Shown: piece by piece, positions 15,243-30,404 of the stretch
Layout of the letters: the number at the start of each line of letters is the position of its first letter
Position numbering within the stretch: position 1 is the stretch's first letter
Source: Candidatus Micrarchaeota archaeon
GTDB taxonomy: Archaea > Micrarchaeota > Micrarchaeia > Anstonellales > Bilamarchaeaceae
Assembly (NCBI GenBank): GCA_043821365.1
Contig: JBDRCX010000006.1
Coordinates: 384,001-448,000 of the forward strand
Reading direction: 5' to 3'
DNA: 64,000 nt
Program-made: the position numbers and the translations under genes
Notes under the pieces: model-generated
Databases searched by the model: none
What the model saw: only the letters and a program-made list of their open reading frames with translations
Told to the model about the DNA's origin: nothing

Positions 15243-16238
15243 CTATTCTAACATTATTCCTTCTTTTATTTCAATTAATCTTCCTAATGCTTCATCAAGA
15301 GTTTCAACTTCTATAGCTTTGATTCCAATGCTTTTTGGAGTCACATTTAGGTTTGTTTCTATTTCTTTTACTGCTATTATGGGTATTTTCTTTTTCATGG
15401 ACTCAAATACTGGTATCCCACCGCATGCAGAATGTGGAATGACAAGCGCAGAAACATCTTCAATTCCAATTCCTTTTTTAGATATTTTAGGTGCTCTGGA
15501 AAGTCCAATTAACACGCAACCTAAGTAAGCAGGGGATATTGCTTCTTCACCTGCTCTCCAATAAACTACTTCATCTTTGAGATTCAGTTTCCAATCTTTT
15601 TCAGAAACAAGAGGAGCATGCGCAGCTGGCATCTTGTATTTCTTTACTACATAATGGGAAACAACGGCTTCCAGTGCACCGACTGGGTTTGGTAGTTTTC
15701 CTTTGTAATATTCTTCCCATAGCTTAGGATCAGAATCTATCTGGATGCTGAGTGCTATGCTTTGTGCTCCTTTTGCAATTAATTTTTTGATTGGTTTGTC
15801 GAATTGTGTTAGGTCTTTTATGCTGCCATAGGCAACTCCATTTTTTATTATTGCTTCAGCACCAACTTTTTTCCCTGTCATTTCAATTCCAACAACATTT
15901 ATGCCGCCATCTGCATGCAATCCATTCACTGTATTTTTTAGTAATGCCATTGCACCTTTATCATCATTTTTTTCAACTACAACGCCTATTCTGTTTCCTT
16001 TTGACGGATCTAATTTTATCTCTCCTCGAAAAAACATATCAAAAAGAGTTCCTTCAGTATACACAATATTCTCTCTCATAAGATTGAGGACGCCACCATT
16101 TACTACATTTGGATGTGTTATTGTATAATCTGAAATAGAAGCTATCAGATTTGCAAATGGTGTGGCATCACCTAAGTATCCACCTACCGAAGCCTTTATT
16201 CCAGTTGGAATCATTAATGTGGTTATGAATGCGCACAT
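15243..16238 (-). CDS. DUF3326-family protein
   Basis: MIPTGIKASVGGYLGDA...ITHPNVVNGG and GALEAVVSH...PAAHAP resemble DUF3326 as I recall it. Confidence 0.7.
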   Translation of the reverse strand: MCAFITTLMIPTGIKASVGGYLGDATPFANLIASISDYTITHPNVVNGGVLNLMRENIVYTEGTLFDMFFRGEIKLDPSKGNRIGVVVEKNDDKGAMALLKNTVNGLHADGGINVVGIEMTGKKVGAEAIIKNGVAYGSIKDLTQFDKPIKKLIAKGAQSIALSIQIDSDPKLWEEYYKGKLPNPVGALEAVVSHYVVKKYKMPAAHAPLVSEKDWKLNLKDEVVYWRAGEEAISPAYLGCVLIGLSRAPKISKKGIGIEDVSALVIPHSACGGIPVFESMKKKIPIIAVKEIETNLNVTPKSIGIKAIEVETLDEALGRLIEIKEGIMLE

Positions 16239-16372
16239 AGTATCGTTACTCCATTTTTCTCAACTCTGATTACACCACTGCGAAGACATTTCATTTTTTT
16301 CATTGCTTTATCTATTGTTTTCCAGTTTTTTGATTTTACAAATATGAAATCTGTTTTTGCTTTTTTACCCAT
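16223..16372 (-). CDS. Small basic hypothetical protein (49 aa), not in the ORF track
   Basis: MGKKAKTDFIFVKSKNWKTIDKAMKKMKCLRSGVIRVEKNGVTILCAHS. RBS GGGTGA and a TATA-like TATATAAA upstream; it overlaps the start of the DUF3326 gene. Confidence 0.6.
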   Translation of the reverse strand: MGKKAKTDFIFVKSKNWKTIDKAMKKMKCLRSGVIRVEKNGVTILCAHS

Positions 16373-16469
16373 GATTTGTTCACCCAGTGTGGCTTTTTAT
16401 ATACTTAACGCAATTCAAGAAGCTTTAAAAGACTTTTTACGTTATACCTTCAATTCTTAGGTAGATACT

Positions 16470-16553
16470 ATGAAACCATTGTCCATAGACGAAGAAGATT
16501 TTGATGAGGACGACGATTTCGAAGAAGATGAATGGGGCGAAGAGGATGATTGA
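16470..16553 (+). CDS. Ultra-acidic micropeptide 1 (27 aa)
   Basis: MKPLSIDEEDFDEDDDFEEDEWGEEDD. AGGT-type RBS; paralogous to the next two ORFs. Confidence 0.7.
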   Translation: MKPLSIDEEDFDEDDDFEEDEWGEEDD

Positions 16554-16554
16554 T

Positions 16555-16638
16555 ATGATATTTAAAATCGATGAAGAAGACGATTTTGATGAAAATGATG
16601 ATTCAGAAGATGAATGGACAGACGAGGAAGATGATTAA
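16555..16638 (+). CDS. Ultra-acidic micropeptide 2 (27 aa)
   Basis: MIFKIDEEDDFDENDDSEDEWTDEEDD. The ATG is 1 nt after the previous stop, with GGATGA upstream. Confidence 0.7.
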   Translation: MIFKIDEEDDFDENDDSEDEWTDEEDD

Positions 16639-16715
16639 TGCGTCCCTTATCCATTGATGAAGAAGAAGACCTAGATGATGATTTCGAAGATGAAGATTGG
16701 GGCGAGGAAGATTAA
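16638..16715 (+). CDS. Ultra-acidic micropeptide 3 (25 aa)
   Basis: MRPLSIDEEEDLDDDFEDEDWGEED. TAATG overlap with the previous stop; followed by a T-rich terminator-like tract. Confidence 0.7.
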   Translation: MRPLSIDEEEDLDDDFEDEDWGEED

Positions 16716-16787
16716 TTTTTATTTTTTCTAATGTTTTTAAACCTCTCTTAGGATAATATAACCTATTCTTGAGTGTTTCTCAGGTGT

Positions 16788-16990
16788 GGGCCCGTAGCTC
16801 AGTGCGGTTTTTTGGAAAAAAAAGCGCGAGTAGCTTGGATAGAGCGGCAGCCTTCTAACTTAAGGAAAAGATAAATGGCCAGTTTTGGTTCAACATTTTC
16901 CTAAAAGGTTGAAAGCTGTAGGCCAGGGGTTCAAAAGCTTTGCGCTGGCGCGCAAAATTTGCCAGCAAGCTGACAATCCCCTCGGGCCCG
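16788..16990 (+). tRNA. tRNA-Arg(UCU) with three introns (15/16: 16803-16833; 37/38: 16858-16913; 59/60: 16936-16976)
   Basis: Removing the three BHB-like introns leaves a 75-nt cloverleaf: GGGCCCG/CGGGCCC acceptor stem, anticodon TCT at 16854-16856, Arg identity elements A20 and G73, TTCAAAT T-loop. Confidence 0.93.
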
Positions 16991-17075: not shown

Positions 17076-17666
17076 CTAACTCATCACATCAGATAAAATT
17101 TGATATGCTCTTGCAGTGTCTGCTTGTTTTACCACTAATATTGTATCAGTGTAGCACGAAATAAATTCAACTATATTTATTCCTTCTGAAGCAAGTGCAC
17201 TCAGAATATGGGATATTACACCAGGAACTTCTTCAAGATCTTCTGGACTTTCTATTGTTATTAAATTAAGATTTTCTTCGCTTTTCCAAATCATCTTTTT
17301 CGGAATTTTTTCAAAATCTTTTTGTTCAAGTATATAAGTCACATGCCTACCAGATTTTGCATGGGAAAGTGGTTTTAGTTCATCAATCTCTTTTTTTGTT
17401 ATGGCGACAACTACTTTATTTTTTATTATCATCGAACTCTTTTTCAAGACATTCAATATTCTTCCTTCCAAATCATCCTGCATTTTTTCTATTCTTTTAC
17501 TGCTTCTGATGAGTGCCATTTTTATTGCATCTTCATTCTCACTGCCTATGTCGTCAGCTATTTTTCTGGCCAGTGAAGAATAATTGACAATCCCAGCACG
17601 AATAATATCTTTGAGAAAAGGGCGTTGCTTTAAGTATAACCAAACCAACTCAGATGTACTTGTCAT
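17076..17666 (-). CDS. ACT-domain protein with N-terminal HTH-like segment (putative amino-acid-responsive regulator)
   Basis: VNYSSLARKI helix-turn-helix-like segment; C-terminal ACT PGVISHILSALASEGINIVEFISCYTD. Confidence 0.72.
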   Translation of the reverse strand: MTSTSELVWLYLKQRPFLKDIIRAGIVNYSSLARKIADDIGSENEDAIKMALIRSSKRIEKMQDDLEGRILNVLKKSSMIIKNKVVVAITKKEIDELKPLSHAKSGRHVTYILEQKDFEKIPKKMIWKSEENLNLITIESPEDLEEVPGVISHILSALASEGINIVEFISCYTDTILVVKQADTARAYQILSDVMS

Positions 17667-17748
17667 AGTTCTATTTGGAACAAGTATGTCTATAAATGTA
17701 ACATCTGTCGCGTAATATTTAAATATGAATTTTTACCCACACTCTACC

Positions 17749-19098
17749 ATGAAAGATGCACTAATAAAATTTCTCACTAGTTTAGGTCTTCAAAATGAGC
17801 TTGAACTTTACCTACGCTTGTTCAAGCAAGTGCAACCACACAAATTCGCAGTTGTAAAAATAAGTGGAGCTACACTTTCAGAAAAAATGGATACAGTTGC
17901 AGAAGATCTTGCGTTTCTTTCCAAGTTAGGTCTTTGTCCAATAGTTATTCACGGTGGCGGCAAACCGATAGATGAAGCTCTTAATAAAAAAGGATTAGAA
18001 ATCAAAAAAGTCAATGGTATGCGTATTACTAATAAGGAAGTAATGCTTGTAACCTCTAAAGTTCTAAATAAACTCACAAATCAACTCGTTTCTCTTATTA
18101 ACAAGAAAGGCGGTCATGCTTTGAATATCAATGATTTTGGCATGATTAAACTCAAAAAAAGTGGATCGGTTGGTGGGGTTGACCTTGGCCTTGTAGCAGA
18201 AATAACTGACATAAATATAAATAAGTTTAAGGAATTGTGCGATTTCGGGTATATGCCTGTTCTAGCATCCATGGGTAATATTGATGGCACTTCATTCAAT
18301 GTCAATGCTGATATTCTTGCAAATGCCATTGTCAAAAAAACCAGACCAAAGAAATTTATCCTACTTACTGATACTGGTGGAATATTGGATAAACAAGGGC
18401 AAATAATTTCAGTTATTGATGTTCAATATGATCTTGAACAATTGGTCAATGGAAAGATTATCAGCGATGGCATGCTTTTAAAAGTGCGAGAAATAAAAAA
18501 ACTTCTCCAATTTGTTCCGGATACTGTAGTGGAAATCTGTTCACCTGAAAATCTTCTAAAAGAACTTTTTACTGTCAAAGGAAGTGGGACATTTGTTCGC
18601 TATGGTGGCAATTTTTTGGTCAAGAATAACTTTAAGGAACTGAATACAAAAAAGATCCAGAAGCTTTTGGTAGATAGCTTCTGCAAGGTTCTTAGTGACG
18701 ATTACTTTGACCAACCTATTGATCTTGTAATAGCTGATAAGGATTATTCAGCTGTTGCAATAATAAAGAAAATCTCGGGGCAGCCCTATTTGGATAAATT
18801 TGCAGTTTCAAAAAATGCACAGGGAAATGGTCTTGGCAAAACCGTTTGGTCTATTGTCAAAAAACACTATCCTTCGCTGATATGGCGTTCAAGTTTGGAC
18901 AATCCTATAAATAGCTGGTACTTCAAGAATGCAGATGGAGTTCATAAGAGTGATAAGTGGGCTATTTTTTGGTATAATCTACAACCTTCAACAGTACTGA
19001 TTCAAACAATTTCTAACATAGTTCCTACGTTGGTGAAAAAATGCGATGTGTTTTTTCTGAACCAAAACAACAATTTTGATATGGTGAAAAAATGTTAA
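17749..19098 (+). CDS. argB: Acetylglutamate kinase fused to a DUF619/NAT domain (NAGS/K-type)
   Basis: AVVKISG, IHGGG and NVNAD kinase motifs. C-terminal YLDKFAV..QGNGLG..LIWRS..NPINSWYF NAT domain. The start is placed at 17749 because a TATA box abuts the ATG at 17725. Confidence 0.85.
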   Translation: MKDALIKFLTSLGLQNELELYLRLFKQVQPHKFAVVKISGATLSEKMDTVAEDLAFLSKLGLCPIVIHGGGKPIDEALNKKGLEIKKVNGMRITNKEVMLVTSKVLNKLTNQLVSLINKKGGHALNINDFGMIKLKKSGSVGGVDLGLVAEITDININKFKELCDFGYMPVLASMGNIDGTSFNVNADILANAIVKKTRPKKFILLTDTGGILDKQGQIISVIDVQYDLEQLVNGKIISDGMLLKVREIKKLLQFVPDTVVEICSPENLLKELFTVKGSGTFVRYGGNFLVKNNFKELNTKKIQKLLVDSFCKVLSDDYFDQPIDLVIADKDYSAVAIIKKISGQPYLDKFAVSKNAQGNGLGKTVWSIVKKHYPSLIWRSSLDNPINSWYFKNADGVHKSDKWAIFWYNLQPSTVLIQTISNIVPTLVKKCDVFFLNQNNNFDMVKKC

Positions 19099-20231
19099 TC
19101 CAAGAAGAGAAAAAATATATCATGAGTGCCTATACTCGTTATCCATTAACAATAATAACTGGGGTTGGGTGTCATGCGTATGCTTCAGATGGAAATTGGT
19201 ACTTGGACATGGTTGGTGGCATTGCGTGTTGTCCGTTGGGTCATCAACACCCAGCAGTAAAAGATGCAATTTTGAGCCAGGTCAATAAGCTTACTAATGT
19301 TAGTAATCTTTTCTATACTGAGGAACAAATTGAACTGGCAAAAAAACTTGTCTCTCTTTCTGGATTGAAAAAATGTTTTTTTAGTAACAGTGGTACTGAG
19401 GCTAATGAGGCCGCAATTAAACTAGCAATTGCCAGCACTAAGAAACACGAATTCGTGGTTTGTCAGAATTCTTTTCATGGTCGTACATTTGGTAGTTTAT
19501 CTGCTACGTACGGTAAAAATTACACACAAAAATTTAGCCCACTTCTATCAAAGTTTGATTTTGTTCCATATGGTGATCTATCTGCAATATCAAACGCAAT
19601 AAATGAGAAAACAGCAGCAATACTACTTGAACCAATACAAGGCGAAGCAGGAATTATACTGCCCCATCATGATTATCTAAAAGAATTATCTGAACTTTGT
19701 GAATCAAAGGGAGTGCTATTTATGTTAGATGAAGTCCAAACAGGCAATGGGCGGACCGGTACCTATTTTGAATATCTTTCCCATGGCATAAAACCAGATA
19801 TTGTTACAACTGCAAAAGGTCTGGCAAATGGTCTTCCAATTGGAGTAACATTATCAAATGGTGTTGATTTTGAACCAGGTGACCATGCATCTACATTCGG
19901 AGGCAATTCATTTGTTTGTGCCGTTGCATCTTCTGTTGTTTCAACTATTTCAAAAAATGGGATGATGGAAAATGCTGCAGTTCAGGGAGACTATATTAAA
20001 AATCAAATTCTTAAATTTGATAAAAAAGAAGTAAAGGAAGTTCGGGGCAAGGGACTTATGATTGGTATTGAATTAGATAAACCAGCAAAAGAAAAAATAT
20101 CTAAATTTATGAAACACGGAGTGTTGGTAAATGTTGTAAATGAGAATACCATCAGATTACTTCCGCCTCTTATACTGGTTCAAAAACAAGCAGATCAATT
20201 CCTTTCTGCATTTAACGAGGTAGTATCATGA
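19092..20231 (+). CDS. argD: Acetylornithine aminotransferase
   Basis: FHGRT, EPIQGEAG, DEVQTG, TAKGLANG class III aminotransferase motifs; arg operon context. Confidence 0.9.
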   Translation: MLIQEEKKYIMSAYTRYPLTIITGVGCHAYASDGNWYLDMVGGIACCPLGHQHPAVKDAILSQVNKLTNVSNLFYTEEQIELAKKLVSLSGLKKCFFSNSGTEANEAAIKLAIASTKKHEFVVCQNSFHGRTFGSLSATYGKNYTQKFSPLLSKFDFVPYGDLSAISNAINEKTAAILLEPIQGEAGIILPHHDYLKELSELCESKGVLFMLDEVQTGNGRTGTYFEYLSHGIKPDIVTTAKGLANGLPIGVTLSNGVDFEPGDHASTFGGNSFVCAVASSVVSTISKNGMMENAAVQGDYIKNQILKFDKKEVKEVRGKGLMIGIELDKPAKEKISKFMKHGVLVNVVNENTIRLLPPLILVQKQADQFLSAFNEVVS

Positions 20232-21130
20232 TCAAAGCAGCGGTTTTGGGTGCTTCTGGTTATTCTGGTAATGAATTAGTCAGCATTTTAGCTAATCATC
20301 CACAGGTTGATCTTGACTTCATACAAAGTAAAAATAATATTGGTAAAAAAGTAACTGGCATCTATCCAGATTCAAAAGTAAATCTCACCTACTCTGATCC
20401 ATCTCTAGAAGAACTCAACAAAGTCGATGTTGTTTTCCTTGCCCTTCCAAAAGAAGAATCACTACGTCTAGCATCAAAACTATCAACTCTAATCATCGAT
20501 CTGAGTCCGGCACATCGATTTCATTCTGAGTATGTTTATGGTCTCCCAGAAATTAATAGAGAAAAAATCAAATCAGCCAATAAAATAGCCAACCCTGGAT
20601 GTTATGCAACTGTTTCGCTTCTGGGTATTTTGCCGTTAACCAAAGTCCAAGTCAATGCCATTGCTTTTGATTGTAAAAGTGGCTATTCAGGTGGTGGTAA
20701 GAGTGTAAAATATGATTTCCAGGAAAATTCTATCCCATACTCTCTTGTTGATCACTATCAAAAACCAGAAATTGCCCAATTTGTTGATGTTCCTTTTTCA
20801 TTTACACCTCATGTTGTTAATGCGTTTCGTGGTCTGATAGCAACTGTTCACATATTTGGTGAATTTGATGATTTGGAATTATTATACCAAAAATTCTACG
20901 AAAAAGAACCGTGTGTTAAAGTTATCAATAGCATACCTGATTTCAAATCAGTTTCTAAGACCCCCTATTGCATGATCGGTGGGATTTCTAAGATGAAGGA
21001 CCATCACATTCTAATAAGTGCTATTGATAATTTGCTAAAAGGTGCTGCTTCACAGGCAGTTCAGAATATGAATATTCGATTTGGTTTTGATGAAAAAACC
21101 AGTTTAGATATTTTTGAGGTGAACTTATGA
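20228..21130 (+). CDS. argC: N-acetyl-gamma-glutamyl-phosphate reductase
   Basis: [16 protein letters not shown] catalytic Cys, [17 protein letters not shown]. Confidence 0.92.
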
Positions 21131-22365
21131 ATAAAAAAGTAGTTTTGGCATATTCGGGAGGTTTGGATACCTCGTGTATCCTTAAGTGGTTAGTGGAAAA
21201 AGGATATGAAGTCATAGCATATGTTGGAGATGTTGGGCAGAATGAAGACTTTGAAGTAGTGAAGAAAAAAGCTCTTGAAATTGGTGCATCTAAAGTCTAT
21301 GTTGAAAATTTGCAAAAAGAATTTGTAACTGATTTTATTTTTCCAGCAATAAAAGCAAATGCAATTTATGAAAGTAGATATCTTCTTGGTACTTCACTTG
21401 CACGTCCAGTGATTGCAAGAAAGCAGATGGAAATTGCAGAGAGAGAAAATGCAGAATATGTTTCTCATGGTGCAACCGGGAAAGGCAATGATCAAGTTCG
21501 TTTTGAGCTTACTTATTACGCTCTCAATCCAAAAATCAAGGTCATAGCACCATGGAAAGACTCAGACTTCTTAGCCAAATTCAAAGGCAGAAAAGATCTT
21601 ATTAATTATGCAAATGAAAAAGGGATTCCAATCAAAGCAACTCATGACAAACCATACAGTACTGACGCAAACCTTATGCACATAAGTTATGAATCTGGGA
21701 TGTTAGAAGATCCAAAAACTGCTCCAACTCCGGCAATGTTTGAGTGGACAAAATCACCAAAAGATGCTCCTGATAAAGAAACACACCTTGAAATTCATTT
21801 CAAAGATGGACTTCCAATTAAGGTTGTGAATAAGGAAAATGGGGCTGCAGTGACAGATCCTCTCGAGCTATTAGTTTATTTGAATGAAGTCGGAGCAGAA
21901 AATGGTGTTGGTCGTATTGATATTGTAGAGAACCGTTTTGTTGGTATAAAATCACGTGGAGTTTATGAAACTCCTGGAGTTACGATCTTACGTGCTGCAC
22001 ATTTGGATATAGAATCCATTGCAATGGATCGAGAAGTTATGCGATTGCGTGATATGCTTGAACCAAAATTCTCAGAATTTGTCTATAATGGTTTTTGGTT
22101 TAGTCCTGAGATGGATTTTCTAAATGCTGCAATAAATAAAAGTCAAGAACTTATTGACGGTGTTGTGTATCTTAGTTTGTACAAGGGTAACATAACAATA
22201 ATTGGTAGAGAATCACCAAGTTCACTTTACGACAAGGATCTTTCAAGCATGGATATTGAAGGTGGATTCAATCAAAGTGATTCAGCAGGGTTTATTAAGA
22301 TCAATGCAATTCGATTGATGGCACACAATGCGATTATACATCATAAGAAAAAGCACGGTAATTAG
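21127..22365 (+). CDS. argG: Argininosuccinate synthase
   Basis: [32 protein letters not shown]. Confidence 0.96.
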
Positions 22366-22379
22366 TGCAGGTGGTTTTG

Positions 22380-23573
22380 ATGCTTTGGGGAGGAAGATTT
22401 TCTAAAGATCCTAAGAAAAATTTGCTGTTATTCAACAGTTCAGACAATATTTCTGTTGATGAAAAACTTGTTGGATACGATATTGTGGGGAGCATTGCAC
22501 ATGTTAAAATGCTTAATAAGCAAAAGCTTCTCAACAATACTGAAGCAAATGCAATAATCAAAGCACTAAATGAAGTTCTTGCTGAATGGAAATCTGGCAA
22601 ATTTAAATTAGACCCAAATCTTGAAGATGTGCACATGAATGTTGAAGTTGCAGTTACAAAAAAAACACCATTTGGCAAAAAAATGCATACTGCAAGATCA
22701 AGAAATGATCAAATAAATTTAGATATGCGTTTGTACATGCGCGATAATGTGACTAAATTTATTTCGTCATTAAGAACTCTTCAAAAAGCATTCAATTCCC
22801 AAAATAAAATCGAAATACCTGCCCATACCCACACCAGAGTAGCTCAGCCAATTACAACTAAACTCTATTACGATGGCTATTCAACTTCTCTGAATAAAGA
22901 TATCGAACGCCTTAACCAGCTTTACAAAAGAATAAACAAATCACCATTAGGTGCATGTGCAATTTCAGGAACCACCCTTCCAATAGACAGAGATTATACT
23001 GCCAATTTACTTGGTTTTGATGGTATTGAAAAAAATCCAGTCGAAACAATAAGTTCAAGAGGGGAATTGGAAGCAGAATTTGCTTTCATATGCACTCTTA
23101 TTGCCATACAATTATCTCGTTTTGCAGAAGATATGATCTGGTTCAGTTATGTTGGTTTAGTTGAACTACCAGAAGAATACTGTACTGGTAGTAGCATAAT
23201 GCCAAACAAATCAAATCCAGATGTTTTTGAGCTTATTCGTGGGAGATCTGCAAAAGTCCAAGGGAATCTTGTTACTTTACTCACTCTTTTGAAAGGAACT
23301 CCAACAGGACACAATGCAGATACTCAAGAATCAAAAAAAGCAATTATGGAATCAATTGAAACAGTTTCTAGCTGCACTGCTATCCTAGCTGACATAATAC
23401 CGCAGATAAAATGGAATAAAAAGAAAGCCAAAAAGCTGATAGATCAAGGATATGCAAGAGCCACTCTTCTTGCAGATGATCTTGTAAAAAAAGGGATCTC
23501 ATTTAGAGAAGCTCATGAGAAAATTGGTAAATTGATAAAAAGACTCGAAAAAGAAGGAAAATATATCGAGTAA
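22380..23573 (+). CDS. argH: Argininosuccinate lyase
   Basis: LWGGRF N-terminus, TARSRNDQ, GSSIMPNKSNPD signature. Confidence 0.92.
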   Translation: MLWGGRFSKDPKKNLLLFNSSDNISVDEKLVGYDIVGSIAHVKMLNKQKLLNNTEANAIIKALNEVLAEWKSGKFKLDPNLEDVHMNVEVAVTKKTPFGKKMHTARSRNDQINLDMRLYMRDNVTKFISSLRTLQKAFNSQNKIEIPAHTHTRVAQPITTKLYYDGYSTSLNKDIERLNQLYKRINKSPLGACAISGTTLPIDRDYTANLLGFDGIEKNPVETISSRGELEAEFAFICTLIAIQLSRFAEDMIWFSYVGLVELPEEYCTGSSIMPNKSNPDVFELIRGRSAKVQGNLVTLLTLLKGTPTGHNADTQESKKAIMESIETVSSCTAILADIIPQIKWNKKKAKKLIDQGYARATLLADDLVKKGISFREAHEKIGKLIKRLEKEGKYIE

Positions 23574-24559: not shown

Positions 24560-25735
24560 TCAAGGTTGTATCCATTCAATTTCATAATATTCATATTCGC
24601 TTCCAGGAAGATCAATTGCTTTTATCACGTAATAAGTGACACTGCTTTCCCTATCTCCAATCCCCATTATCATTTCCAGTCCGTATTGGTTACACTCTGC
24701 CAAAGCCTTTGCAAGTTCTTCTCCACCAATGCATTCATCCTCAGTGAGCGAGTACATCAAATATCGTGGTGTTCCGTCTTTTGGAGTTTCTATCCCTCCT
24801 TTTTTACGGTGATAACAAACAAAATCTAACCTTGGTTTTTTCGGATTAATTTCTATCGAAGTCTTCTTTCCTGGAATTGCAAGTATGAATGTTTTTTTCA
24901 CACTATGAGCTACTCTAATAGCCCTTGCCCATTCCGAAATTATCTGTTTATGCTTTCTTGGGAAAACATGAATAACGTGTTTGGAGTGCATCCATTCGTC
25001 TTCACTTCTTATTGGCGATGCACCTGGGAAATATATTCTGAAATGAGTACCGAATTTGAACCCAGTTTTTATTACATACCCTCGTTTTCTCCAATCCTCA
25101 TATACAGAATACATATCTGAGAAAAACTTCATTCGCTTTTTTGCTATTTTTTCTACATCTCCTACTTTTAGATTTTTTAAGGTTAATTCACCATGCTTCA
25201 GGAGGTAAATTGTTTCGTAAATATCAAGTTTTGATATTTTGCCTCTATGTGCTGCTTTGTAAGTTCCAAATTGTCCTATCCAATACCTTTCATATAATTC
25301 CTTTCCAACTCTTTCATCATCAACTATTGTGATGAGGTCATTTGGGAAGAAAAGTCCTTGGAATGAATACGAATCTATGTCGAAATGCCCTCCTTTGTAC
25401 TTAACGGATATGGATCTCCCATAATTTCCTTCTGCTTCTGTTGCATTCCTGAGTATTAGTCCTTTATCACGATAATCTTTATAGGTCAAATATCTTGCTA
25501 GTAACCTCTTATTTTTTACAAATAGTGCTGCAACGTCATTAAAACCAAATTCATTCCCAACATCATCATAGCATCTGCCATTGCGAATATCCATGATATA
25601 CAGAGCTTCCTCTGGTGTTAGGTAAATTATCCCCCTTTTCATCTGGCCGTAAAAACCGTTTTGTAGAGAAGAAACAGCTGATGGTTCCTTCACAAACAAA
25701 GTACGCTTTTTTCGGTCCAGCTCAAGTTTTATCAT
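24560..25735 (-). CDS. endA: tRNA splicing endonuclease, three-unit ARMAN/epsilon2-like
   Basis: About 391 aa; GFKFGTHFRIY, HSKH and VKK catalytic Tyr/His/Lys; GTYK loop 75 aa upstream of the Tyr. Confidence 0.9.
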   Translation of the reverse strand: MIKLELDRKKRTLFVKEPSAVSSLQNGFYGQMKRGIIYLTPEEALYIMDIRNGRCYDDVGNEFGFNDVAALFVKNKRLLARYLTYKDYRDKGLILRNATEAEGNYGRSISVKYKGGHFDIDSYSFQGLFFPNDLITIVDDERVGKELYERYWIGQFGTYKAAHRGKISKLDIYETIYLLKHGELTLKNLKVGDVEKIAKKRMKFFSDMYSVYEDWRKRGYVIKTGFKFGTHFRIYFPGASPIRSEDEWMHSKHVIHVFPRKHKQIISEWARAIRVAHSVKKTFILAIPGKKTSIEINPKKPRLDFVCYHRKKGGIETPKDGTPRYLMYSLTEDECIGGEELAKALAECNQYGLEMIMGIGDRESSVTYYVIKAIDLPGSEYEYYEIEWIQP

Positions 25736-25834
25736 ACACAAACCTCTCGAGCGGAAATTCCGAATTACAATAATTATCTGTGGCTAAGGGTATTAAGCCC
25801 TTTTGGTCTCCTGTTTTTGGGATTACAAACTCCA

Positions 25835-28717: not shown

Positions 28718-30151
28718 TTATGCTCCGGATTTAAAATCCAGCGTATGTAATCGAACTTGTTTCATTTCATATACTGGAACTAGGGCAGGGGTTGGTACAT
28801 GCCCCTGTTTTATCTGAAAATCTGTTCTATCCTGGAATGTCCCTGAATTTATAACTAATGTTCCTCTGTATTGGGTGTACCCGTTCTTATGGACATGGCC
28901 GCAATGGAAAACGTCAGGGGGGTCGTCTATTATCATATAATCGTTGTCTTCGGGAATTATCAAATTCCCGCCGTAAATCGGTGATAAATGTCTTCTTTTT
29001 AGATATTCAACCATTACTTTTTCAGGATGAGTATATGTCGTCTGTGGAATATTTGCTATCATGGAGTCTATTGAGGTTCCGTGATACATAAGGTGTTTTA
29101 TTCCTTCCACATTGAAGCATGATGGGTTACCAACTCGTGTTACATTTGATGTCACATACTCCTTGCTTATTGCTGGTTGTGGTTCTCCTCTTCTTACTGC
29201 ATCATGATTTCCTGGACCAACTATAACTTCAATGTAATCAGGCAAATTTTCGATAAAATCATCAAACATCTTATATTGTTGGAATACGTCCTTTACAATA
29301 AGTTCATTTTCTTGGTTTGGATAAATTCCAATCCCATCAACAATATCGCCTGCAATTGCAAGGTATTTCACTTTTCCTGCAAGTTCTTTTGCCTCTCCTT
29401 TTCCATGAAGCCAGTCAACAAAGACATTCAAATATTTATCGAGGAAATATCTACTTCCAAAATGTATATCTGATAGATATGCTATTGCAACATCATTCTC
29501 TACTTTTTTCTTCTCTCTTATAACTGGCAAGTCTGGCCATTCTATATCCTCTGCAATAAGGTATGGTTCAAGTACTTTTCCAGTTATTGCTATAATATCG
29601 TCTAATATCACAGACTTGGCCTTTCCCATGACTTTTTCATTGAATTTTGATGATGAGATGACAACCTTAAACGTTCCGCTCAGATCCTCAATTTCAAACA
29701 ATAAATTGCCTTTTTTCGTTTCTCTTTTATTACTTATAAAAACAATTACCCGTACGCGTTCATTAAGATGTTTTTTTATATCTGCAAGATCTGCTGTGGG
29801 TACTGAATTACTTCGTCTAAGCATTTTTGAAATCCTTTCAAATCTGTTTCTGAAGTGTGCTATAAAATTATCAACTTCGCCTTTTGTTCTTGATTTTCCT
29901 GTTACGTCTAATGAGTGGTTTATTTTTACGTCTGAAGAATATTCTTTTGCAACTGGTGAAAACTCCGCCTTTCTTATGACTTCAACTTGCGATTCTTTCT
30001 TTGGTTTAATTAGTTCTTCTATGTCTTCTTTTGAAACAAATGGTTTACCCAATCCAATTATCTTCTTTAATAATTCATCCGATGAATTGGCTTTCAAAAA
30101 ATTTTCTGCATCGACAGTAAGTCTGATTCCTTTTCCAACTAATTCATCCAT
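28718..30151 (-). CDS. polD1: DNA polymerase D small (proofreading) subunit DP1
   Basis: OB fold plus calcineurin-like motifs SDIH, AGDIVDG, PGNHD, YHG, GHVH. Confidence 0.93.
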   Translation of the reverse strand: MDELVGKGIRLTVDAENFLKANSSDELLKKIIGLGKPFVSKEDIEELIKPKKESQVEVIRKAEFSPVAKEYSSDVKINHSLDVTGKSRTKGEVDNFIAHFRNRFERISKMLRRSNSVPTADLADIKKHLNERVRVIVFISNKRETKKGNLLFEIEDLSGTFKVVISSSKFNEKVMGKAKSVILDDIIAITGKVLEPYLIAEDIEWPDLPVIREKKKVENDVAIAYLSDIHFGSRYFLDKYLNVFVDWLHGKGEAKELAGKVKYLAIAGDIVDGIGIYPNQENELIVKDVFQQYKMFDDFIENLPDYIEVIVGPGNHDAVRRGEPQPAISKEYVTSNVTRVGNPSCFNVEGIKHLMYHGTSIDSMIANIPQTTYTHPEKVMVEYLKRRHLSPIYGGNLIIPEDNDYMIIDDPPDVFHCGHVHKNGYTQYRGTLVINSGTFQDRTDFQIKQGHVPTPALVPVYEMKQVRLHTLDFKSGA

Positions 30152-30158
30152 TTACCCA

Positions 30159-30404
30159 CTAACGTTCATTGTGGCTTTCTAGAGCACTGATAACTGCCCA
30201 TATCTGAGTCCTAGCATGGGCTGGCATGTTTATGTCCTCAGTTATTCCCTCGATAATGTAGATCGCAGCACTGATTTTCACGCTTTTTTCTTCTTCACTA
30301 TCAAGACGTGCTTTTGCTTCAGTTAATGCTCTTCTTATATTCTTTGGAATTCCGGTATCATTAGCTAGTTCGCCTACCATCCCACTTATTTCTTCTAACT
30401 CCAT
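30159..30404 (-). CDS. UPF0147 family protein
   Basis: DTGIPKNIRRA...DINMPAHARTQIWAVISALES. Confidence 0.85.
   Translation of the reverse strand: MELEEISGMVGELANDTGIPKNIRRALTEAKARLDSEEEKSVKISAAIYIIEGITEDINMPAHARTQIWAVISALESHNER

Follow-up and report, generated by a model that had tools for sequence, protein, structure and literature searches.

Between positions 16470 and 16715 of the 64,000-nucleotide stretch of DNA analyzed here (the window), a Candidatus Micrarchaeota (DPANN) metagenome-assembled genome from groundwater or biofilm contains three short, closely packed reading frames in which most codons specify aspartate or glutamate. The locus raises the question of whether such frames are genes and, if they are, what peptides of this composition might do in the cell. 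An initial annotation of the window had interpreted them as an operon of translationally coupled micropeptides missed by ORF calling, and had listed functions that ranged from nucleic acid mimicry to the supply of modified-peptide precursors. Our analyses support the part of that interpretation that posits a real and undescribed micropeptide family, and disfavor the modified-peptide precursor. The genome spans 1.2 Mb in 6 contigs, has a G+C content of 36%, and is 87% complete; the sequencing runs listed as containing the locus include no RNA run and are exclusively DNA runs of groundwater or biofilm metagenomes.

Organization of the Locus

The three ORFs, as read from the sequence and the ORF list, lie on the plus strand at 16470–16553, 16555–16638, and 16638–16715, and are referred to here as micropeptide genes 1, 2, and 3. 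Genes 1 and 2 each encode 27 residues and gene 3 encodes 25. Our recount of Asp plus Glu agrees with the values first reported (17/27, 17/27, and 15/25); these 15–17 acidic residues per peptide fall within residues 6–27, and about 63% of residues carry a carboxylate. Genes 1 and 2 are joined by TGA-T-ATG (16551–16557) and genes 2 and 3 overlap at TAATG (16636–16640), the two junctions from which translational coupling had been proposed. A Shine–Dalgarno-like sequence is found before each ORF, as the initial annotation had claimed: AGGTAGAT (16459–16466) precedes gene 1 and is represented by AGGTGGAT or GGTGA in relatives, while GAGGATGAT (16543–16551) and GAGGAAGATGAT (16624–16635) are formed by the last acidic codons of ORF1 and ORF2, respectively. 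Gene 2 has a second in-frame ATG at 16546; its start at 16555 is backed by an M-I-[FL]-[KR]-[IV]-D head that is kept in the two related genomes G015 and G024.

Upstream of gene 1, a TATA-like box, TTTAAAAG (16424–16431, plus strand), is located about 40 nt 5′ of the ORF and at an equal distance in orthologous loci. It is followed by a conserved block, CGTTATACC (16440–16448, plus strand), that is identical in the window, G015, and G024, occurs in most loci of the genus, and is probably an initiator or the start of the 5′ UTR; the 5′ region as a whole is nearly identical across the three closest genomes. Directly 3′ of the last stop codon is a T5-A-T6-C-T run (16716–16729, plus strand; T5-A-T6 spans 16716–16727) that resembles an archaeal oligo-T terminator, in keeping with the T-rich terminator noted previously.

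The composition of the three ORFs is exceptional in this genome. Of the 16,897 ATG-initiated ORFs of 15–70 aa in the whole genome, none apart from these three, counting their nested starts, contains at least 45% Asp plus Glu, which indicates that they exceed chance. The initial annotation had described units of about 84 bp that diverged in DNA sequence, and Tandem Repeats Finder (TRF) indeed detects no repeat of this period at the ORFs, a result that fits divergence of the units at the DNA level. The Asp and Glu codons of the ORFs are more mixed than those of the genome, with GAC at 56% compared with 21% and GAG at 36% compared with 19%.

Evidence That the Reading Frames Are Genes

The purine-rich, low-complexity composition of the locus is what would be expected if it were not a gene but a GA-rich non-coding repeat or RNA element in which open frames are incidental. 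The substitution pattern argues against this explanation. For 35 members aligned by codon (580 between-genome pairs), pooling gives a pN/pS of 0.23 in the ORF frame and of 2.05 and 0.99 in the other two frames, which contain 50 and 90 stop codons, and purifying selection is thus specific to the ORF frame, as the inference of selection at the protein level had implied. Indels between orthologs are multiples of three. A six-frame search with the family profile described below gave 87 matches in 62 genomes, all 87 of them stop-free and within open frames of 26–177 aa, where the 177-aa frame belongs to a lone weak match in genus g15; the loss of reading frame in orthologous regions that the initial annotation had named as evidence against a coding function is not seen.

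Expression signals are conserved together with the start codons. Compared with random positions in the same loci, a TATA-like word at −65 to −31 is present in 32 of 39 unique loci versus 5% (at least 6-fold), a Shine–Dalgarno-like word at −16 to −4 of the first ORF in 34 of 39 versus 12% (7-fold), and a run of at least five T within 45 nt of the last stop codon in 27 of 39 versus 11% (6-fold). No Rfam family matches the locus, and the absence of a TRF repeat likewise counts against a non-coding repeat, which we regard as scarcely credible. We conclude that the three ORFs are very probably real coding genes. Judged by these sequence measures, the genes are coding and conserved, are accompanied by expression signals, and have no detectable relatives outside the family.

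Distribution and Copy Number

The first relatives were found through orthologs of the DUF3326 gene that is divergent from the acidic ORFs, which led to two sister genomes with two and three acidic ORFs at the same site. A profile built from 8 sequences matched 23 of 40 genomes of the genus; one built from 37 matched 38 of 39 genomes of the genus, 59 of 98 genomes of the family, 2 of 19 genomes of a sister family, and 16 of the 48 genera of the order. The gene is present in genera g1, g16, g18, g19, g21–g25, g27, g28, and g32–g36; searches of g17, g29, and g30 did not find it, and g15 gave only the weak match mentioned above. Conservation and copy-number variation, for which the initial annotation had suggested a search, are thus both apparent by profile, with one to three copies per locus. 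In a phylum-wide draw of 401 genomes the matches are confined to these two families, and the approximately 265 genomes from other orders of the phylum yielded none, a specificity control that shows that an acidic stretch as such does not trigger the profile. Inspection by eye of the region 5′ of tRNA-Arg revealed two further divergent members in genera that the profile had missed. In the sister family one genus carries the peptide gene; these are clearly copies of the same gene, in which Phe or Val takes the place of the second Trp.

Outside the genus the gene is present as one copy, while genomes within the genus usually have two and three genomes have three. At two-copy loci of the genus, one copy is of a type with Ser/Thr at the middle anchor position and the other has Phe. 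The ancestral form is single-copy, and tandem duplication produced the two or three copies of the genus; the trio in the window is derived from an ancestral gene that was single-copy and had two Trp residues, a relationship that the initial annotation had overlooked. The two-copy locus of G024 (L002:1096–1267, minus strand) resembles the three-copy locus of the window with one unit of about 84 nt removed, the head of gene 2 being joined to the tail of gene 3. This comparison of sequences suggests that copy number changes by unequal crossing-over.

In genomes that lack the peptide gene, no remnants of it were seen 5′ of tRNA-Arg. At one such locus of the same family (genus g32; L150:1520–1845, plus strand), the region upstream of tRNA-Arg contains a duplicated A/G-rich non-coding repeat that has a GC-rich, hairpin-like core and no acidic ORF.

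Conserved Features of the Peptides

Members of the family are hyper-acidic peptides of 23–31 residues with a net charge of about −17. Their consensus begins with a short head, M-[KR]-P-L-x-[ILM], which is wholly absent from one subclade, and continues with a core in which D-E-E-E-D leads to an aromatic position, occupied by Trp in most lineages; a middle anchor, Phe or Ser/Thr, follows after four acidic residues, and a Trp after a further four. The core contains neither Lys nor Arg, which makes the peptides, with expected masses of about 3.0–3.3 kDa, invisible to tryptic proteomics. The tail consists of Glu and Asp, extends 3–9 residues beyond this Trp, and ends in a variable residue (D, E, G, Y, F, L, T, Q, or S). 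In the ancestral form, Trp, Phe, and Trp are placed at a fixed spacing of five residues among the Asp/Glu runs. The aromatic positions together with D7 and E8 are near-invariant, W22 being nearly invariant, which fits a role as anchor residues and not as mere carriers of charge. These anchors tolerate change, given that several copies, those of the window included, have Phe, Leu, Ile, or Pro instead of the first Trp, and that the sister-family genus has Phe or Val instead of the second; in the subclade of the window Phe or Leu now occupies the first Trp position, and the anchors of gene 1 are Phe, Phe, and Trp. Structure prediction using AF2 with the alignment gave a pLDDT of 65, a pTM of 0.13, and no secondary structure, and the peptide is accordingly predicted to be disordered.

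Several of these features could be explained if the peptide were an abundant soluble polyanion that buffers Mg2+, Ca2+, Fe3+, or polyamines, or binds a mineral surface, by bulk charge. The high proportion of carboxylate residues and the freedom with which tail length and the order of Asp and Glu vary are consistent with this explanation, and tandem amplification fits a dose-dependent bulk function. However, ion binding does not need fixed spacing, near-invariant aromatics, or a conserved head, no signal peptide is present for an extracellular (mineral) role, and no transporter or metal gene is a conserved neighbor. We therefore think bulk cation or polyamine binding unlikely, and weaker than a specific ligand or mimic.

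The family has escaped annotation. A Pfam search with the 37 members at E values up to 1 returned a single chance match, to an unrelated family, and when 1.84 billion representative proteins were searched exhaustively with an HMM, the 19 matches were all stand-alone proteins of 29–65 aa that belong to the same family; this search found no longer protein with the motif. The three peptides of the window are absent from a collection of 15 billion proteins, which bears out the view that they are missed by annotation, and relatives that have been called in public data are unnamed or labeled "hypothetical protein." Look-alikes in the ESM Atlas score at most 0.81 and are unnamed. We found no description of the family in the literature on acidic microproteins in archaea or Micrarchaeota, and the proposal of an undescribed system stands insofar as no known family was matched. 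Public calls (P0019, P0003, P0006, P0008, P0010, and P0015) are often over-extended to an upstream in-frame start; such calls translate the 5′ UTR or an overlapping frame of the preceding copy and acquire spurious Arg/Gly-rich N-termini.

Gene Neighborhood

The initial annotation overlooked the genomic context of the peptide genes, which includes tRNA-Arg(UCU), UPF0147-PolD DP1, and FttA. Genomes of the genus typically show the order psmB, FttA/aCPSF1, a 153-aa phosphoribosyltransferase on the opposite strand, the peptide gene or genes, tRNA-Arg(UCU), UPF0147, and PolD DP1. The FttA neighborhood is found only in this genus and a few relatives: the peptide gene lies 3′ of FttA on the same strand at 26 of 80 FttA loci, with FttA identity of at least 74% in all 26. 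The link to UPF0147-DP1 reaches more widely, 15 of 23 matches from outside the genus being located 300–900 nt 5′ of UPF0147. The tightest link is to tRNA-Arg: in 37 of 40 unique loci its 5′ half (GGGYYCGTRGCKCAG) occurs no more than 900 nt downstream, the median distance from the last stop codon being 61 nt, and in 34 of 40 the UCU anticodon arm is present. This link persists even at loci from which UPF0147 is no longer close by. In the window, for example, UPF0147 (30159–30404, minus strand) and PolD DP1 (28718–30151, minus strand) are 13 kb distant on the other strand, from which we conclude that a rearrangement separated them from the peptide-tRNA pair in this subclade.

The tRNA-Arg(UCU) gene of the window (16788–16990, plus strand) has its own TATA-like box and is a conserved downstream neighbor outside the peptide unit. 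It contains several introns and is missed by ARAGORN and by Rfam at the gathering score; its orthologs have differing sets of introns, and the G024 copy lacks the D-loop insertion. ARAGORN detects no tRNA, and Rfam no family, anywhere in the 64-kb window, which also encodes a long tRNA-splicing endonuclease of 393 aa (24560–25741, minus strand); the lack of ARAGORN tRNAs together with this endonuclease gene suggests that tRNA genes in this genome are generally rich in introns.

The position of the ORFs, 27–277 nt 5′ of a tRNA gene in 37 of 40 loci, invites comparison with leader peptides of the intrinsic ribosome destabilization (IRD) type such as MgtL, which likewise have an extreme Asp/Glu run within their first 30 residues; MgtL-type sensing is a bacterial process. 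The peptide genes might thus be a cis-acting leader in which the Asp/Glu run destabilizes the ribosome and drop-off controls read-through into tRNA-Arg or other genes. In bacteria and eukaryotes, N-termini rich in Asp and Glu cause translation to abort, and proteomes avoid them (PMC9718836, PMC12673854); however, this avoidance is not seen in the archaeon Pyrococcus furiosus (PMC9718836). Unlike IRD-type leaders, the micrarchaeal peptides are predicted to have no downstream ORF on the same transcript, are followed by a terminator-like T-run, and contain conserved aromatics. The tRNA is set apart from the ORFs by the T-run and a second TATA-like box; the gene that comes next yields a tRNA and not an mRNA, and conserved aromatics and two or three coupled copies are not expected of a sensor. 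A connection to tRNA-Arg(UCU) by way of AGA codons was also considered and rejected, given that AGA accounts for 7 of the 21 Arg codons in the ORFs compared with 57% in the genome, and this lack of enrichment is a further argument against a leader. On balance, a cis-acting leader is distinctly unlikely.

Adjacent to the acidic trio, and divergent from it, are a gene for a basic 49-aa protein and a DUF3326 gene whose start it overlaps (15243–16372, minus strand). This pair is found at the peptide site only in genomes G000, G024, and G015, with 65–78% identity in the small gene; no further relative of the 49-aa protein at comparable length is present in the protein collection, and the literature assigns no known function to DUF3326. 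We rejected the pair as partners of the peptides: it accompanies them in these three genomes only, and two genomes have DUF3326 without nearby acidic ORFs. On the other side, a divergent ACT/DUF7523 gene is followed by an argB-NAT fusion, argD, argC, argG, and argH (17076–23573), a cluster from which argJ, argE, and argF are absent. DUF3326, the basic 49-aa gene, and this arginine operon owe their position to an insertion or rearrangement confined to the three genomes. UPF0147 was rejected as a co-distributed partner as its distribution is uninformative (170 of 176 genomes of the order). No acidic micro-ORF adjoins the ABCE1 gene of this genome.

Genomes without the peptide have the genes for tRNA-Arg, UPF0147, PolD DP1, FttA, and the phosphoribosyltransferase in the same arrangement, and these genes are predicted to be separate transcription units, each with its own signals. 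For both of these reasons we take the synteny to mark the site at which the peptide gene originated and not to be evidence of its function; the conserved neighbors look like inherited gene order.

Comparison with Known Acidic Proteins

The small acidic carrier proteins LysW/ArgW are a possible precedent, given that some micrarchaeal copies, among them copies 1 and 3 of the window, contain a D/E-W-G-E string reminiscent of the EDWGE motif of LysW, and that arginine biosynthesis genes are located 1 kb away. By this analogy the peptide would be a carrier or scaffold to whose acidic C-terminus an amino acid is ligated, or else a RiPP-like precursor, since tandem small genes are typical of precursor peptides. 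LysW contains a zinc ribbon (Cys4/Cys3) and ends in an invariant EDWGE, the last Glu of which is the site of attachment by the ATP-grasp enzymes LysX/ArgX (PMC10433800). None of these defining features (zinc ribbon, terminal EDWGE, LysX/ArgX) is found with the micrarchaeal peptides, which are 23–31 aa in length compared with about 54 aa for LysW/ArgW, have no Cys in 37 aligned members, and carry the motif at a position that is not C-terminal, with a variable last residue. A search of the genome with TIGR01206 scored three candidates, none past an E value of 0.001, while the controls matched; the RimK/LysX-type ATP-grasp model (PF08443) has no match in the 87%-complete genome, with matches to the controls in 13 of 14. 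The clear ATP-grasp matches in the genome are all in one 1069-aa open frame, probably CarB on the basis of its size and two ATP-grasp matches, and there is a weak, sub-cut-off match in a 366-aa frame on the same contig, 76 kb from the peptides. The arginine cluster, moreover, is of the acetyl type (ArgB-NAT fusion) and is absent from most loci that encode the peptide. As for a precursor, no modifying enzyme is among the conserved neighbors, DUF3326 being present in only three genomes; together with the variable C-terminus, this disfavors the modified-peptide precursor listed in the initial annotation. We consider a carrier or precursor highly improbable.

A second precedent is provided by acidic mimics. 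The C-terminal tips of Hfq, the tails of SSB, and acidic activation domains combine Asp/Glu tracts with aromatic or hydrophobic residues and are disordered, and such acidic tails bind basic surfaces that otherwise bind nucleic acids. These tails are parts of larger proteins, whereas the micrarchaeal motif is the whole gene product.

The closest likeness is to DSS1/Sem1, a eukaryotic protein of the proteasome lid, BRCA2, TREX-2, and Integrator-PP2A complexes. DSS1/Sem1 and the micrarchaeal peptides are small, free-standing, very acidic, and disordered, with conserved Trp/Phe residues. The DSS1 partners INTS7 and the PCI subunits are not known from archaea. DSS1 is a flexible protein of 70 residues in which W39 is critical for docking in a hydrophobic groove of INTS7 (PMC12228764). 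The two differ in length, with 70–90 aa in DSS1/Sem1, and in the spacing of their aromatics, and homology to DSS1/Sem1 (PF05160) is not supported, given the lack of a Pfam family match at E values up to 1. The genes of the genus follow psmB-FttA, and FttA is by Pfam a β-CASP nuclease of the CPSF73/INTS11 family, which forms a curious parallel with two of the client machines of DSS1. By analogy, then, DSS1/Sem1 is the system that the family would most resemble in its mode of action, without being a member of it. We classify the peptides as a new, lineage-restricted gene family that is placed loosely among small acidic disordered cofactors.

Proposed Function

With a non-coding repeat, a carrier, and a precursor set aside and a cis-acting leader opposed by the evidence, a trans-acting peptide is what remains. 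We tentatively favor a disordered polyanionic ligand that acts in trans, either as a mimic of nucleic acid or of an acidic tail or as a DSS1-like cofactor or chaperone, and that docks via its Trp/Phe residues. The combination of fixed aromatic anchors with a disordered polyanion is, by comparison with the systems above, a signature expected of peptides that dock on basic or hydrophobic surfaces. In the mechanism that we posit, the three genes would be transcribed as a unit, separately from their neighbors, and their translation would be coupled; the product would act in trans as a small polyanionic ligand; its aromatic side chains may insert into hydrophobic pockets flanked by basic surface on a putative partner protein; and the tandem copies would raise the dose. 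N-terminal Asp/Glu runs are hard to translate in bacteria and eukaryotes (PMC9718836), which counts against a trans-acting peptide. Prediction of a complex between FttA and a 30-aa member of the family, run without controls, gave a score of 0.00 in two runs, which speaks neither for nor against such a complex.

A bolder extension, which we hold to be rather doubtful, is that the peptide is the smallest known free-standing acidic-aromatic interaction module, a DSS1-like or nucleic-acid-mimicking cofactor that consists of the motif alone, is needed by a core machine of DPANN archaea, and represents one branch of a wider, recurring class of archaeal hyper-acidic Trp microproteins. The core machine would be that of transcription termination, replication, or translation.

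Implications

With lengths of 75–95 nt, the genes fall below the cut-offs of standard gene callers, so that the annotation of dozens of public Micrarchaeota genomes omits the whole family. The family offers a clean test case, with 23–31 residues, three anchor positions, natural variation in copy number, and natural variants that lack the head or have Phe in place of Trp, and it is suited to asking how a minimal polyanionic peptide gains a specific cellular role. As an extreme natural ORF that is expected to be hard to translate, it is also useful for the question of whether Asp/Glu runs destabilize the archaeal ribosome. If a partner is found, the peptide would represent an unknown regulator or cofactor in the reduced genomes of DPANN archaea, which keep few dispensable genes.
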